Of a stretch of DNA of 10,844 bases, positions 3,921 to 10,844 are shown in pieces. The DNA comes from a virus (Duplodnaviria > Heunggongvirae > Uroviricota > Caudoviricetes), in the IMG/VR virus record IMGVR_UViG_2537561687_000016, positions 1-10,844 of that record; one strand, written 5' to 3'. A program made the position numbers and the translations under genes. Within the stretch, counting starts at the first letter, position 1, and every line of letters starts with the position of its first letter. The notes beneath the pieces are model-generated. The model had not been told where the DNA came from. It was given only the letters and a program-made list of their open reading frames with translations, and did no database searches.

Positions 3921-3984
3921 AGTAACTTTTATGATTTTTTATTATCGATAATTGCAGCAATTATAAGATGAGCGTTAGTGCGCA

Positions 3985-4003
3985 GTGCTTTCCCCGCCTC
4001 GCC
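3985..4003. other. cos site core (P2/P4-type 19-nt cohesive end sequence)
   Basis: GTGCTTTCCCCGCCTCGCC at 3985-4003 is the exact reverse complement of GGCGAGGCGGGGAAAGCAC, which I recall as the 19-nt cohesive end of P2/P4. Immediately followed by a GC-rich stem (4003-4008 pairing with 4017-4022) and TTTT. Confidence 0.7.
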
Positions 4004-4104
4004 CGCCCGCTTTGCGGGGCGGTTTTAATGCAGTTGCACTGACACGCTCAGGCCGTGCCGGGCGTGGCCTGGTATACAGAAAATGAGGCAGGAAAACGCA
4101 TGCA

Positions 4105-4137
4105 AAGCCATGCACCTTATCGATGCATGGCTTTTTT
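4105..4137 (+). terminator. Rho-independent terminator-like hairpin (plus-strand orientation)
   Basis: AAGCCATGCA (4105-4114) pairs with TGCATGGCTT (4124-4133), 9-nt loop, followed by a T-run (4132-4137). Lies between cos and the 3' end of psu, positioned to stop read-through from the int/cargo side. Confidence 0.5.
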
Positions 4138-4167
4138 CAGTAAAAACGGGCGGATTTTCGGGGAATT

Positions 4168-4740
4168 TTACACAGACTGACGTGATGCCAGTTGCGCACT
4201 TTTACGCGAAAAAATCATGTTCTGCGCAGGAGTGAATTTTTCACGGCTGTCATCCACCGAAGCCGCGTCAGGCCTGAATCCGATGGTCGTTAAAATGTCG
4301 CTATCCTGTGCGGAATAATTAATTTTTTCACCCTTCGCAAGCCAGGACAGAAGGGCTTCACGCAGGGCATCTGTGGCACGCTGTATGGCACAGTTTCGGG
4401 CAATGGCCGTCAGCTCACTGTAGCCCATCAGCTCCGGTGCCAGTGCCGCCGCCAGTGCTGTGCCGTGCTGCTGCATAAAATCATTCAGCCGGTCGCGGAT
4501 GCTGATGTGCTGAACGGCTTCATGCGAACGAATATAACGACCGGCGGCCTGATTCACCTGCCATTTTCTGACTTCGATAATATTGCGTAATTCGTCCAGG
4601 CGACTGACGTTTCTGCCTTCTCCTGACAGAAGCCGCAGATATTCCTGTTCGGCCGCTGCCAGCTCATTTTTGCGTTGCAGCCATGCTGCTTTGTTATTCT
4701 GACAGGTGTCAAAGGCCTGCTGTAAGGCTGTGCTTTCCAT
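4168..4740 (-). CDS. psu: Psu-like polarity suppression / capsid decoration protein, 190 aa
   Basis: 190-aa ORF, same length as P4 Psu; N-terminus MESTALQQAFDTCQNNKAAWLQRKNELAAAEQEY matches my recollection of P4 Psu. Last gene of the minus-strand sid-delta-psu operon. Confidence 0.85.
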   Translation of the reverse strand: MESTALQQAFDTCQNNKAAWLQRKNELAAAEQEYLRLLSGEGRNVSRLDELRNIIEVRKWQVNQAAGRYIRSHEAVQHISIRDRLNDFMQQHGTALAAALAPELMGYSELTAIARNCAIQRATDALREALLSWLAKGEKINYSAQDSDILTTIGFRPDAASVDDSREKFTPAQNMIFSRKSAQLASRQSV

Positions 4741-4813
4741 CGTTATCTCTTTCTCATCATGCTGAAGAATAAAAATACGGTGTGCGGCGACGGCCGGTGT
4801 TAACCGGCAGCCC

Positions 4814-5314
4814 TCATTCCAGACGCAGCGAATATGATTGTGTTTTTAACCGTACTGGCGGCAGTTCCTGTTTTTCATGCAGGCGTTCTGCCAGTTCGTC
4901 CGGCGTGACCGGGCGGACAATGAAGCGGTTGATGGTCTGAAGCGTTTTAAACACCAGACCACAGCCCGGATCCGTGCACACATAAAAACGCTCGGTGACT
5001 TCCTGAGACAGACGCCGCGATGTTCTTGACAGTGCAAGGCCTTTACATCTCCGACAACAATATCCGGTAACAAGCATTCTTTTCGGGCGTTTCATACTGC
5101 CGGAGGCTGACGTCAGTGAATCGCGGTATCTCTGTTTGCCTGAAATGTATTCCATTCCTGAATCTTTACTGTCAGAGAAAAAGCTTTCACTCGCTTCAAA
5201 TGTCGCAGAGCAATAAATATTCCGGCACTGTGCAATCATTATCTTGGTGCCATCGTCCATGAAATGTGCGCGACGGGTGTGAGCAACATGTCCACACGAC
5301 GGGCAGTAAATCAT
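4814..5314 (-). CDS. delta: Delta-like late transcriptional activator (tandem Ogr-type zinc fingers), 166 aa
   Basis: 166 aa, same length as P4 Delta. Two Cys-rich Ogr-like modules (MIYCPSCGH...C...C and CRRC...CTDPGCG). Start codon overlaps the sid stop (ATGA at 5311-5314). Confidence 0.85.
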   Translation of the reverse strand: MIYCPSCGHVAHTRRAHFMDDGTKIMIAQCRNIYCSATFEASESFFSDSKDSGMEYISGKQRYRDSLTSASGSMKRPKRMLVTGYCCRRCKGLALSRTSRRLSQEVTERFYVCTDPGCGLVFKTLQTINRFIVRPVTPDELAERLHEKQELPPVRLKTQSYSLRLE

Positions 5315-6044
5315 GACAGCAGTCCTCTGGCCTTAAGCTCTGCTCCCTGCTGGTCTATTTTGTCCTGCCACACCTTGCGCTGTGCCGGTGTGCCTGCCAC
5401 CTCATAATCCATGTGCGGGAGTGTTGCCGCTGACAGTCCGGTCAGCCGGAGAACCGGCTCGCCGGTGAGGCTGATTTGCATCTGTTTAATTTTCTGTTCC
5501 AGCGATGATTTCACCTGCTGCATGACAGCCTTTTCCGGTGCGACGTAGCCCTGATGGCCGGTGGTGTTGGCGAGCGGATTTTCCTGTACCAGAATGCTCA
5601 GATGCATTGCCCGGACAAGCGCCTCACAGGTTTCATTCAGGGCGTGTTCCAGCTCATGCTCTGCATACAGACTCAGAAGGTGATGATGTGCCTTCCGGTA
5701 GGCGGTGGCCGTGCTGTCACACGCCCCTTTCAGGCGTTCCGTTCAAAATTCAGCACCACGGCCAGATTGTCATATTCCTGTACCAGCTCCCGGCGTGCCA
5801 CGCGCTCAATGTGGCGCTGTTTCAGCTCGTCGCTCAGGACACCACCGGCTGCACGAAAGGCCGTGCGCCAGTCGTCAGCGTCGTTTCCGTCGGCCTGCGC
5901 CAGCGCATTTTTTTCCTGCTCTGCCCGTTCAATGGCCGTGACGGTCTCATCCATCAGGCGGGCGTTCTCAAGATGGGCGGCTCTGGCCTTTTCCAGTTGT
6001 GCCAGTGCGGGTTGCAGATATTCAGGGATGGTGTTGTCAGACAT
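5311..6044 (-). pseudogene. sid: sid-like capsid size determination gene with an apparent 1-nt frameshift (two ORF fragments)
   Basis: N-terminal fragment (ATG at 6044-6042 with AGGAG RBS, to TGA at 5732-5730) begins MSDNTIPEYLQPALAQLEKARAAH. C-terminal fragment continues in another frame to TGA at 5313-5311. Total span 734 nt, one short of the 735 nt needed for a 244-aa Sid plus stop. Frame switch lies around 5725-5740. Confidence 0.6.
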
Positions 6045-6116
6045 TTTCCGGCTCCTCGTCACTTCAGGTTAAGAAAATTGTGACGTACACCGGACAACAA
6101 CACGACGCATTGCAGA

Positions 6117-6134
6117 TGTGCCAGCCCTGACACA
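6117..6134 (-). promoter_or_regulatory. TGT-N12-ACA dyad, candidate Delta/Ogr activator site of the leftward late promoter (P_sid-like)
   Basis: TGTGCCAGCCCTGACACA at 6117-6134. Centre is about 80 bp upstream of the sid ATG (6044), compatible with the roughly -55 position of Ogr/Delta sites at P2/P4 late promoters. Confidence 0.5.
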
Positions 6135-6213
6135 GGAGACTCATCCTCAGACCGGCAAGCCAGGAAAAGGTCGCAGGAAAAACCGGCTTACTGTTTGTTT
6201 TTTTATATTTTAC

Positions 6214-6317
6214 TGTTCACCTCTGTTCACCATAAGAAAAAAGATAAGTAATACAGTAAGTTAAAGGGTGAACAATCGCAGTAATGACTGTTCACCGTCT
6301 GTTCACCACTGTTCACC
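6214..6317. repeat. Iteron array: five direct copies and one inverted copy of TGTTCACC, candidate alpha-binding replication origin (P4 ori-like)
   Basis: Direct copies at 6214-6221, 6224-6231, 6289-6296, 6300-6307, 6310-6317 (spacing 10-11 bp); inverted copy GGTGAACA at 6267-6274. TGTTCACC is, as I recall, the type I iteron bound by P4 alpha at ori and crr. Array lies about 4.7 kb upstream of the projected alpha 3' end. Confidence 0.6.
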
Positions 6318-6420
6318 CGCTGATGGACTTTTTGTGCTGTTTACTACTGTTTGTTTTTATTAATTCGCCGTGAATGAATAAGAAGAAACGATTTGTATTT
6401 CACTATAAAAATTACGAATT

Positions 6421-6450
6421 GCTTTAAGTGGCTTTAAATGACTTTAAGTG
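6421..6450. repeat. Three tandem 10-bp repeats (GCTTTAAGTG / GCTTTAAATG / ACTTTAAGTG), candidate regulator binding sites
   Basis: Perfectly contiguous decamers with 1-2 mismatches, about 27 bp upstream of the rightward TGT-N12-ACA dyad. Function unknown. Confidence 0.4.
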
Positions 6451-6476
6451 GAGATGAACAAAAAACACACAGCCAT

Positions 6477-6494
6477 TGTAAGGCTGCCGGAACA
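6477..6494 (+). promoter_or_regulatory. TGT-N12-ACA dyad, candidate Delta/Ogr activator site of the rightward late promoter (P_LL-like) upstream of vis
   Basis: TGTAAGGCTGCCGGAACA at 6477-6494; centre about 110 bp upstream of the vis ATG (6597). Confidence 0.45.
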
Positions 6495-6596
6495 AATCCC
6501 CCCTGTTGCGTCTGCCAAAAATATTCACAAAATAAAGCGCTACCCGAAGCCGGACGGACTTATCCGGTGCTGTATGGACATTAACGAGGTAGCCCG

Positions 6597-6863
6597 ATGC
6601 AAGCTGTTTTTTCTTCCCCGTCTCCCGCCCCTGTGACGCCACTGATGCCGCTGCCGGACATCACGCAGGAGCGTTTTTTACGTCTGCCGGAAGTGATGCA
6701 CCTGTGCGGCCTGTCACGCTCGACCATCTACGAACTCATCCGTAAGGGGGAATTTCCGCCGCAGGTGAGTCTTGGCGGTAAAAATGTGGCCTGGCTGCAC
6801 TCTGAAGTCACCGCATGGATGGCCGGACGCATTGCCGGACGCAAACGGGGGTACGACGCATGA
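6597..6863 (+). CDS. vis: Vis-like (AlpA-family) small HTH DNA-binding regulator/excisionase, 88 aa
   Basis: 88 aa, same length as P4 orf88 (Vis). HTH-like core [27 protein letters not shown] typical of AlpA/Vis regulators. GAGG RBS at 6586-6589. Confidence 0.8.
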
Positions 6864-6898
6864 TGATGCCCGCTCTGCAAAAACTCCCTTTTTCTGGC

Positions 6899-6928
6899 TT
6901 GCCTTTTTCCGGCATTTGCGGATATAGT
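6899..6928 (+). promoter_or_regulatory. Candidate sigma70 promoter (P_LE-like) for the immunity/early operon
   Basis: TTGCCT (6899-6904), 18-nt spacer, TATAGT (6923-6928). A perfect 7-bp hairpin follows at 6935-6954 (GCTGCCG / CGGCAGC). Pattern match only. Confidence 0.35.
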
Positions 6929-7249
6929 TTTTCCGCTGCCGCAAAATCGGCAGCCGGGCGTGAGAACCCGAGTAAGTCAAAGGCGACATATGACGCGCCA
7001 TGCGTCTTTTTTTGTGTCGCAATCAACGCCACAGAGCGCCAGATTATGGTGTGGCGTGTGGTTTGCCGTGCAGGTATGATCCTGTTCGCAATCGCATGTT
7101 ATGCCACTGAGTCAATGGTAGCTCAGGCGGGGCAGCCTCCGGGCTGGCCGGTATCCTATGACGCCGGTATTCTCACCCCCGTCTGGGCTATCGCCATCGA
7201 GCGTGAGAACTCCGGCGATAGCGTTATTTGCTACTCAGGAGGCTGCCTT

Positions 7250-7447
7250 ATGGCTACAACCCTTACCCCCTCACACCCTGAATTTGTCTTTGTGTTTGCG
7301 GCTGTCCGTCGCGCAGACCGTCATCCCCGTATCTGCATGCTTCGCACCGTCGCCGGTGATGAACGCAGCGCCCGCCGTTCCCTTGTCCGTGACTATGTGC
7401 TCTCCCTTGCTGCCCGTCTGCCGGTGGTGGAGGTGTCCCGTGCGTAA
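7250..7447 (+). CDS. Small hypothetical protein of the P4-like early operon, 65 aa
   Basis: ATG at 7250 preceded by AGGAGG (7236-7241). This is the 3' 65 codons of the 210-aa track ORF, whose upstream part overlaps vis, the promoter and structured leader and is unlikely to be coding. Identity not recognised. Confidence 0.45.
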
Positions 7448-7727
7448 TAAAAAAGCCCCTCAGACCGTCTCAGCACGTCATGACGCCCGTGAACACCTCA
7501 GCATTGAGGCTTACCATAAGCTCAACCGCGCCAGCGCCGTATCCCAGTTTGTTGGGGGTGATTTGATTCACCGTGAACTCTCCGGCCTGCATCAGCTCTA
7601 CATTCCGCATATTTTCAGCTACCTGAATGAAGATATTGATTTTGTGCTGAATGAGCTGAAAGCCAAAGGCCTGTGCCGCGATTTTCTCGCCCAGCAGAAA
7701 GACCGGGGAGACAGGACGCATGTTTGA
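7440..7727 (+). CDS. Small protein, 95 aa, possible epsilon-like helper derepression protein (tentative)
   Basis: GTG at 7440 preceded by GGAGGTG. Overlaps the previous stop by 8 nt and ends in ATGtttTGA overlap with the next gene. 95 aa fits my uncertain recollection of P4 epsilon. An in-frame ATG at 7395 without RBS is an alternative start. Confidence 0.4.
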
Positions 7728-8175
7728 TTTTCCCCAGCCCGGTGAGATTTACCGTTCTGCCGGTTTTCCCGATGTGGCCGTGGTCGGCATTCTGGAAGAC
7801 GGTATTCCGTGGGAAATGCCGTACCGCTGCCCGGACATTGTCTGGAACCCGTACCGCCGTAAATTCAGTATCCTTGTGCGTATCCTCGCTGACGGGCGCA
7901 CCACAGACATCCCGCTGGGGCGTTTTCTGCGGGAATTTACCTGTGACCGTCCTGACCTGTTTAAACGCAGCCCCGTAAACCGGCATGCGGTACTGAAAGA
8001 AATGGCCGGAGACCCGGAATTACAGAAATGGCGGGAGAAATATCTGGATATTTACCCGCAGGACACTGTTCCGGTCAGCCGGGCAGCACCGGTGGCGCGG
8101 GAATGGCGGGAAATTCCCCGCACGGAGCCTGACCCGGAAACCACCCCGGATAACAGTTACCGCAATTATCTGTAA
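7720..8175 (+). CDS. P4 orf151-like hypothetical protein, 151 aa
   Basis: 151-aa ORF immediately upstream of the alpha region, with GGGGAG RBS. Length and position match P4 orf151. Function unknown. Confidence 0.7.
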   Translation: MFDFPQPGEIYRSAGFPDVAVVGILEDGIPWEMPYRCPDIVWNPYRRKFSILVRILADGRTTDIPLGRFLREFTCDRPDLFKRSPVNRHAVLKEMAGDPELQKWREKYLDIYPQDTVPVSRAAPVAREWREIPRTEPDPETTPDNSYRNYL

Positions 8176-8310
8176 TTAAAAAACGACACCCGAAAAATTA
8201 AATGTGCGTATTCGCGCAGGGATACGCACGTCTTCAGGAGACGCAGATATGCCTTATCAGTTAATGCAACCGGCACGGAATGCAGTCATCTGTCACAGGG
8301 AGGAAAGCAA

Positions 8311-8631
8311 ATGAAAACACCCTTACCGCCCGTCTTACGCGCTGCCCTTTACCGTCGCGCTGTCGCCTGTGCCTGGCTGACCGTGTGCGAACGTCAGCAC
8401 CGCTACCCGCATCTCACCCTTGAATCACTGGAGGCGGCCATCGCCGCTGAGCTGGAAGGCTTTTATCTGCGCCAGCACGGTGAGGAAAAAGGGCGTCAGA
8501 TAGCCTGTGCCCTGCTGGAAGATTTAATGGAATCCGGCCCCCTGAAGGCCGCGCCGTCGCTGTCCTTTCTCGGGCTGGTTGTGATGGATGAACTCTGTGC
8601 CCGTCACATAAAAGCGCCGGTACTGCACTGA
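8311..8631 (+). CDS. P4 orf106-like hypothetical protein, 106 aa
   Basis: 106-aa ORF with GGAGG RBS (8298-8302), ending 14 nt before the alpha start. Length matches the P4 orf106 name; position assignment is from memory and uncertain. Confidence 0.6.
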
Positions 8632-8645
8632 AGGAGAACAACACC

Positions 8646-10844
8646 ATGAAAATGAACGTAACCGCCACCGTCAGCCATGCGCTCGGCCACTGGCCGCGTA
8701 TTCTCCCGGCGCTGGGGATTCAGGTGCTGAAAAACCGTCATCAGCCCTGTCCGGTCTGTGGCGGGAGTGACCGCTTCCGTTTTGATGACAGGGAGGGGCG
8801 CGGCACCTGGTACTGCAATCAGTGTGGTGCCGGTGACGGCCTGAAACTGGTTGAAAAGGTGTTTGGTGTTTCCCCGTCCGACGCGGCCGCAAAGGTGGCT
8901 GCCGTGACCGGCAGCCTGCCCCCGGCTGACCCGGCAGTGACGGCTGCCGCCGGTGCTGAAACAGACGCTGCCCGGAAGAACGCCGCCGCACTGGCACAAA
9001 CCCTGATGGCAAAAACCCGTCCCGGAACCGGTAACGCCTACCTGACCCGCAAGGGCTTTCCCGGCCGGGAATGCCGGATGCTGACCGGCACACACAGAGC
9101 CGGTGGCGTGAGCTGGCGCGCCGGTGACCTTGTGGTGCCACTGTATGACGACAGCGGCGAACTGGTTAACCTTCAGTTAATCAGTGCTGACGGCCGTAAG
9201 CGCACCCTGAAAGGCGGACAGGTCAGGGGCACCTGTCACACCCTTGAAGGACAGAATCAGGCCGGAAAACGTCTGTGGATAGCGGAGGGATACGCGACCG
9301 CACTTACCGTACATCACCTGACCGGTGAAACGGTGATGGTGGCGCTTTCTTCCGTGAACCTCCTTTCTCTGGCCAGCCTTGCCCGGCAGAAGCATCCGGC
9401 CTGTCAGATTGTCCTTGCCGCAGACCGTGACCTCAGCGGTGACGGCCAGAAAAAAGCCGCCGCAGCCGCAGATGCGTGTGAGGGCGTTGTTGCCCTGCCG
9501 CCGGTCTTCGGTGACTGGAATGATGCCTTCACGCAGTACGGCGGGGAGGCCACCCGTAAGGCCATTTACGATGCCATCCGGCCACCGGCTGAAAGCCCGT
9601 TCGACACCATGAGCGAAGCAGAGTTTTCCGCCATGAGTACCAGCGAAAAGGCCATGCGTATCTATGAGCATTACGGCGAGGCGCTCGCGGTCGATGCCAA
9701 CGGCCAGCTTCTGTCCCGTTATGAAAATGGTGTCTGGAAGGTGCTGCCGCCACAGGACTTTGCCCGGGATGTGGCCGGGCTGTTTCAGCGTCTGCGCGCG
9801 CCGTTCTCCTCCGGGAAGGTGGCCTCCGTGGTGGACACCCTGAAGCTGATTATTCCGCAGCAGGAAGCCCCCTCCCGCCGCCTGATTGGCTTTCGTAACG
9901 GCGTGCTCGACACGCAGAACGGCACGTTCCACCCGCACAGTCCGTCACACTGGATGCGCACCCTGTGCGATGTGGATTTCACCCCGCCGGTGGACGGTGA
10001 AACGCTGGAAACCCACGCCCCCGCGTTCTGGCGCTGGCTTGACCGTGCCGCCGGTGGCCGTGCGGAAAAACGCGACGTGATTCTGGCCGCACTGTTTATG
10101 GTGCTGGCAAACCGCTACGACTGGCAGCTCTTTCTGGAGGTGACCGGTCCCGGCGGCAGCGGCAAAAGTATCATGGCCGAAATAGCCACCCTGCTGGCCG
10201 GGGAGGATAACGCCACGTCGGCCACCATTGAGACGCTGGAATCCCCGCGTGAACGTGCCGCGTTAACTGGCTTCTCACTGATACGCCTGCCGGACCAGGA
10301 AAAATGGAGCGGCGACGGTGCCGGACTCAAGGCCATCACCGGCGGCGATGCGGTGTCCGTGGACCCGAAATACCGGGATGCGTACTCCACGCATATCCCG
10401 GCGGTGATTCTGGCCGTGAACAATAACCCGATGCGCTTCACCGACCGCAGCGGCGGCGTGTCACGCCGGCGGGTGATTATTCACTTCCCGGAACAGATAG
10501 CCCCGCAGGAGCGCGACCCGCAGCTTAAGGACAAAATCACCCGCGAGCTGGCGGTCATCGTGCGTCACCTGATGCAGAAGTTCAGCGACCCGATGCTCGC
10601 CCGGTCACTGCTTCAGTCCCAGCAGAACTCAGACGAGGCGCTGAACATCAAACGGGATGCCGACCCGACGTTTGATTTTATCGGCTATCTGGAAACCCTG
10701 CCGCAGACCAGCGGCATGTATATGGGGAACGCCAGTATCATCCCGCGTAATTACCGTAAATACCTCTATCACGCCTATCTGGCTTACATGGAGGCAAACG
10801 GCTACCGGAATGTACTCAGTCTGAAAATGTTCGGGCTGGGGCTG
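8646..10844 (+). CDS. alpha: Alpha-like primase-helicase (zinc-binding N-terminus, Toprim primase, D5/SF3-type helicase), 3'-partial (733 codons in window)
   Basis: ATG 8646 with AAGGAG RBS. I translated the frame by hand over the N-terminal ~280 codons and the last ~250 codons and found no stop; the middle section was not checked codon by codon. This ORF is absent from the supplied track, presumably because it has no stop within the window. Motifs: CPVCGGSDRFRFDDREGRGTWYCNQCG, Toprim-like WIAEGYATALTV and VLAADRDLSGDG, Walker A GPGGSGKS (approx 10146-10169). P4 alpha is 777 aa as I recall, so about 44 codons are missing. Confidence 0.9.
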   Translation, partial: MKMNVTATVSHALGHWPRILPALGIQVLKNRHQPCPVCGGSDRFRFDDREGRGTWYCNQCGAGDGLKLVEKVFGVSPSDAAAKVAAVTGSLPPADPAVTAAAGAETDAARKNAAALAQTLMAKTRPGTGNAYLTRKGFPGRECRMLTGTHRAGGVSWRAGDLVVPLYDDSGELVNLQLISADGRKRTLKGGQVRGTCHTLEGQNQAGKRLWIAEGYATALTVHHLTGETVMVALSSVNLLSLASLARQKHPACQIVLAADRDLSGDGQKKAAAAADACEGVVALPPVFGDWNDAFTQYGGEATRKAIYDAIRPPAESPFDTMSEAEFSAMSTSEKAMRIYEHYGEALAVDANGQLLSRYENGVWKVLPPQDFARDVAGLFQRLRAPFSSGKVASVVDTLKLIIPQQEAPSRRLIGFRNGVLDTQNGTFHPHSPSHWMRTLCDVDFTPPVDGETLETHAPAFWRWLDRAAGGRAEKRDVILAALFMVLANRYDWQLFLEVTGPGGSGKSIMAEIATLLAGEDNATSATIETLESPRERAALTGFSLIRLPDQEKWSGDGAGLKAITGGDAVSVDPKYRDAYSTHIPAVILAVNNNPMRFTDRSGGVSRRRVIIHFPEQIAPQERDPQLKDKITRELAVIVRHLMQKFSDPMLARSLLQSQQNSDEALNIKRDADPTFDFIGYLETLPQTSGMYMGNASIIPRNYRKYLYHAYLAYMEANGYRNVLSLKMFGLGL

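Follow-up and report, generated by a model that had tools for sequence, protein, structure and literature searches.

Phage P4 replicates independently of DnaA, DnaB, DnaC and DnaG, and its alpha protein is regulated by Cnr, the product of orf106. The P4 origin (ori, also called oriI) shares with iteron-type plasmid origins (pSC101, P1, R6K, F) helically phased direct repeats, a replicon-encoded initiator, and an adjacent A+T-rich unwinding region. It differs from them in that its iterons are only 8 bp long, the initiator is itself both helicase and primase, and a distant second cluster of repeats, crr, is also needed in cis for replication. Work by Ziegelin and Lanka (1995) is cited in this connection. 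Two papers describe P4 alpha as binding through its C-terminal domain to the repeats of the P4 origin and then carrying out unwinding and priming (PMC4234260; PMC2777425), and a further article cites Ziegelin et al. (PMC8628076).

The P4 genome record (X51522 / NC_001609) annotates the origin in some detail. Over the stretch of interest here it lists an 'origin of DNA replication' at 9086-9809, six features named 'ori type 1 repeat' and three named 'ori type 2 repeat', and a record from 1984 (X02534) already has direct repeats, described as imperfect, and a putative consensus for ori at this place. The second cluster, crr, is annotated at 4291-4590 of X51522, just past the alpha terminator. 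It is made up of two 120-bp direct repeats, each holding five type I repeats that do not all point the same way, and only about half of these type I repeats are exact copies of the octamer TGTTCACC. In P4, the type I octamer is the recognition sequence of alpha. From the end of crr at 4590 to the start of the ori repeats at 9310, the distance in P4 is 4,720 bp.

The DNA analyzed here, which we call the window, is a stretch of 10,844 bases that makes up the last part of contig AQBY01000075.1 (assembly GCA_000358655.2), the contig ending at window base 10844 inside the alpha gene. Positions 4004-10844 of the window align with P4 positions 11624-4771, on the opposite strand, at 98.4% identity; the 4 kb to the left of this are not P4 sequence. 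Its genes and regions come in the order psu, delta, sid, ori, orf88/vis, the immunity region, epsilon, orf151, orf106 (cnr), and alpha. The coordinates of the features discussed below are collected in the table.

An exact search of both strands of the 10,844-base window returned six copies of TGTTCACC, five direct and one inverted, all of which lie between 6214 and 6317; outside this interval the same search found no further exact copy. Only 0.32 copies would be expected in the window by chance, and a count of at least six was reached in none of 200 dinucleotide-preserving shuffles. Permitting one mismatch added only nine scattered background matches, for a total of 15 against 7.95 expected. 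The direct copies form two clusters 65 bp apart with the inverted octamer in between, and their start-to-start spacings within the clusters are 10, 11, and 10 bp; helical phasing of the iterons holds within the clusters. Iterons 3 and 4 form a dyad, GGTGAACA-N14-TGTTCACC, that was also flagged by a scan for stems. This stem at 6267-6296 was considered as a terminator and rejected, as it is simply iteron 3 paired with iteron 4, and terminator-like stems across the window are as frequent as shuffles predict. GC content falls to 0.25-0.33 at 6200-6260 and 6320-6470, placing A+T-rich DNA between and after the octamer clusters. On one side the array is flanked by sid, which is read from the minus strand with its ATG at 6044, and on the other by orf88/vis (6597-6863, plus strand, 88 aa). 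The original prediction had described, at 6214-6317 between sid and vis, five direct copies spaced by 10-11 bp plus one inverted copy; the exact search agrees with it in every detail, and the flanking genes are those it had named.

Table. Position, strand, and supporting remarks for the features of the window
Feature	Position	Strand	Remarks
Tyrosine integrase, 389 aa	1-1170	+	440 aa for P4 Int
SIR2-family protein (Pfam SIR2_2), 915 aa	1173-3920	+	between integrase and cos
Counterpart of GenBank P4 rep_origin (9086-9809)	5818..6541	.	coordinates transferred from L001 319-1042 by alignment
Type I iteron 1, TGTTCACC	6214..6221	+	exact match; P4 'ori type 1 repeat' 9406-9413
Type I iteron 2, TGTTCACC	6224..6231	+	exact match; P4 9396-9403
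A+T-rich spacer separating iteron clusters	6232..6266	.	GC 0.25-0.32 in 60-nt windows
Type I iteron 3, inverted	6267..6274	-	exact match on the minus strand; P4 9353-9360
Type I iteron 4	6289..6296	+	exact match; P4 alignment
Type I iteron 5	6300..6307	+	exact match; P4 alignment
Type I iteron 6	6310..6317	+	exact match; P4 alignment
A+T-rich tract right of the iterons	6320..6421	.	GC 0.25-0.33; inside annotated P4 rep_origin
Three tandem 'ori type 2' decamers, CTTTAAGTGG CTTTAAATGA CTTTAAGTGG	6422..6451	.	P4 'ori type 2 repeat' x3, 9176-9205
orf106 (cnr), copy-number regulator acting on alpha (function from literature)	8311..8631	+	106-aa ORF, P4 ORF106; Pfam DUF5375 in relatives
alpha (primase-helicase-origin binding protein)	8646..10844	+	729/733 identical to P4 alpha

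The correspondence with P4 extends to each element of the origin. A 351-bp ori stretch is 98.3% identical to P4, with six point differences, and when the two are aligned, the octamers and type II decamers of the window, six and three in number, are the same as those of P4 in sequence, order, orientation, and spacing. The substitutions that separate the window from P4 all fall outside the iterons and type II repeats, either in the spacers or further to the right. The two loci have in common six TGTTCACC type I repeats laid out as two direct, one inverted, and three direct, with the 10-11 bp spacing inside clusters, together with three type II decamers, the A+T-rich tracts, the position between sid and orf88/vis, and a cognate alpha that is encoded in cis and is 99.5% identical. 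The type II decamers score 26 of a possible 30 as a tandem array, against a shuffle maximum of 20. From this correspondence with annotated P4 sequence, we consider it very probable that the array serves a P4-type satellite prophage as its replication origin (ori, oriI). The tract directly to the right of the iterons is a candidate unwinding region.

The initiator expected to act at such an origin is encoded in the window as well. The alpha gene ends with the contig after codon 733 of 777, 44 codons before the stop, and part of the DNA-binding domain lies beyond the contig. What is present of this domain, residues 671-733, is 100% identical to the crystallized P4 origin-binding winged-helix domain (PDB 1ka8, E = 3.5e-36).

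Because the contig ends inside alpha, a crr of this element would fall outside the window. The crr and attR would be on another contig or unassembled, and an 80-base exact scan with the window-end sequence gave no match in the species-representative genome collection. The closest relatives match the entire window at 99.2% identity and share its integrase and SIR2 gene. Their ori is at window-equivalent positions 6215-6318 and their crr octamers are at 11043-11305, about 60-320 bp past the alpha stop, in two repeat units separated by about 180 bp. A crr with two octamer repeat units after alpha was found in the elements L003, L004, L005, and L014. The octamer is common to P4 crr and the window array, and the literature has P4 crr bound by the same protein as P4 ori; they differ in that the window array is the ori cluster and not crr. 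The original prediction had matched the octamer with the alpha-binding type I iteron of P4 ori and crr, read the array as the replication origin, and placed crr about 4.7 kb away beyond alpha. The six octamers map onto the 'ori type 1 repeat' features of the P4 record and sit within the counterpart of its annotated origin, so that both identifications appear sound at the level of sequence. The distance is borne out by P4 and by the nearest relatives, and the matching cluster downstream of alpha, whose absence was to count against the prediction, is there in P4 and in every relative examined.

Conservation of the array can be followed well beyond these close relatives. Of 5,426 complete E. coli genomes, 1,068 have the ori region, in every case in the chromosome. 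When seven elements are aligned, iterons 3-6 and the A+T-rich spacer hardly vary, and iterons 4 and 6 are the same in all seven. The more distant L011 is about 78% identical over the aligned 57% of the sid-vis intergenic region and has the layout ACTATTCACT-ACTGTTCACT ... GGTGAACAG ... ACTGTTCACC-G-ACTGTTCACT-ACTGTTCACC, with GTGAACAGT/ATGAACAGT boxes past its alpha. L012 is about 74% identical over only the aligned 20% of that region and contains paired ACTGTTCA(C/T)/ACTATTCAC boxes that flank an inverted GGTGAAT. Both have retained the layout with the core ACTGTTCAC/ACTATTCAC while the surroundings have diverged. Since it is kept in L011 and L012 despite the diverged flanks, the arrangement of two direct, one inverted, and three direct repeats reads as a conserved footprint, of the kind that would be expected for initiator sites. 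Individual relatives also display changes in or near ori that amount to decay. In L004 (15053), representing the 120899-type elements, iteron 2 is mutated to TGTTCACA, and in L013 (strain 02E060) it has been removed by a 10-bp deletion at about 6162. L013 additionally has an IS66-family element at 8190-10805, between orf151 and cnr in the replication operon.

Outside the origin, the window element departs from P4 in several ways. It is a chromosomal prophage with an integrase of its own beside tRNA-Thr(CGT), and it has a SIR2-family gene where P4 has gop/beta/cII. The tRNA gene (L010 11009-11084) adjoins the element and lies downstream of proA, with proB, phoE, and crl nearby, a chromosomal context that is of the E. 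coli type; both the attachment site and the integrase differ from those of P4. In relatives, the slot occupied here by the SIR2 gene holds other cargo, including a UvrD-helicase with an ATP-dependent nuclease, an ORC/CDC6 ATPase, a HEPN protein, or a DEAD-box helicase or AAA ATPase, and the interval between integrase and cos appears to be a slot whose cargo varies and may consist of defence genes. The cos region itself, at about 3975-4050, is 89-95% identical to P2-type phages (P2, pro147, 9W, and Yersinia phages), and this P2-type match sits where the P4 match begins, consistent with a shared cos site. On the other side of the origin, Rfam matches on the plus strand to c4-a1b1 targets (6922-6974), isrK (6935-7012), and the C4 antisense RNA, or P4 cI RNA (7111-7198), are those of the P4 immunity RNA system, and a sigma-70-like promoter occurs at 6899-6928, where PLE is expected. 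A further locus, L009 8829-13364 (GCA_024770475.1), carries the integrase, the SIR2 gene, cos, and the start of psu at 99.8% identity. Past window-equivalent position 4536 it continues into unrelated chromosomal genes; what is left there is a truncated copy of this element that lacks both ori and alpha.

If the array is the origin of this element, replication could proceed as it does in P4. The octamers would be the type I iterons, to which the element's own alpha would bind through its C-terminal winged-helix origin-binding domain; alpha is a single polypeptide expected to combine primase, SF3 helicase, and origin recognition. After excision, or upon entry as a plasmid, alpha molecules would load onto the phased iterons and open the A+T-rich DNA next to them, and would then carry out unwinding and priming themselves, with host polymerase III subsequently replicating the DNA in both directions. 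The crr, a second iteron cluster predicted just downstream of alpha and about 4.7 kb away, would be required in cis, and the small Cnr protein encoded by orf106 would restrain initiation through alpha. The P4 literature is the source for each of these steps: binding, unwinding, and priming by alpha, the need for crr, and the control exerted by Cnr. What the computed comparisons lend to this scheme is that every ori element, alpha, and its DNA-binding domain match P4 and that crr is present in relatives.

Other explanations for the octamers were weighed against this one. Repetition by chance or low complexity, with no function attached, could be entertained for so short a motif, but the copy number far exceeds expectation and the shuffles, and the position and orientation of the repeats are kept down to about 74-78% identity. 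The shuffles and the conserved layout rule this explanation out, and we assign it practically no weight. A regulatory role has somewhat more to recommend it, as the octamers could be operators for a transcription regulator, either a delta/Ogr-type activator or Vis, acting on the divergent late promoters Psid and PLL. Both of these promoters are in the same sid-vis intergenic region as the array, and X02534 annotates a -10 box and a 5' untranslated region there. Octamer clusters nevertheless occur again downstream of alpha in P4 and its relatives, far from the late promoters, and GenBank labels the octamers as ori repeats. Moreover, TGT-N12-ACA dyads, the motif of delta/Ogr-activated promoters, are found apart from the array, at 6117-6134 on the Psid side and 6477-6494 on the PLL side. 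With the octamer recurring at crr and the promoter dyads lying outside the array, operator sites for delta or Vis were rejected as highly improbable.

The only live alternative is an idle origin in a partly defective prophage, that is, a P4 ori by descent that no longer fires in this strain. Compared with P4 and with all relatives, the sid gene (5311-6044, minus strand) has a 1-bp deletion near 5739 that splits it, leaving open reading frames of 104 aa (5730-6044) and 98 aa (5311-5607) that are two genes in the source assembly, and with this frameshift the prophage may be partly defective. The absence of crr and of the 3' end of alpha from the contig points the same way, as does the decay seen in relatives, where iteron 2 is mutated in L004 or deleted in L013 and IS66 has entered the replication operon of the latter. 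Against this, all six iterons are undamaged, as are the type II repeats and the 733 codons of alpha, and all of these are essentially the same as in functional P4; the contig break is no sign that crr is absent. The split of sid is either a real pseudogene, in which case the satellite would be without small capsids, or an assembly error, and sid is in any case not a replication function. We regard a silent relic as quite unlikely, and the array as the origin of a P4-type satellite prophage remains the reading that we favor.

The P4 ori has long been known, and its identification in the window is correct but ordinary. Only the variability of the type II block adds something to existing annotation. 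Between the window and L004, 41 of 95 differences fall in 6001-6500, and nearly all of these are located between 6320 and 6466. The type II block is P4-like in the window and in L005 and is replaced in the nearest SIR2-carrying relatives. A different decamer triplet occupies the type II position in L014 and L011, and the alignment of seven elements together with the tandem scan revealed no clear decamer triplet at this position in L004 and L013. The pattern across 6320-6466 suggests mosaic recombination inside ori. It is conceivable, if unlikely, that the type I array is fixed while the type II block is a swappable module, exchanged by recombination inside ori; its decamers would then be recognized by a factor that differs from element to element and adjusts the activity of the origin or of PLL.

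The main value of the finding is one of correct annotation, with the array marking what is very probably the origin of a P4-type satellite prophage. P4-like elements are common in complete E. coli genomes: about 20% have this ori type, and 46% match some part of the window. Because RefSeq leaves the ori unannotated, a rule that looks between sid and vis for TGTTCACC in the arrangement of two direct, one inverted, and three direct copies, and for crr past alpha, could serve for its routine annotation.
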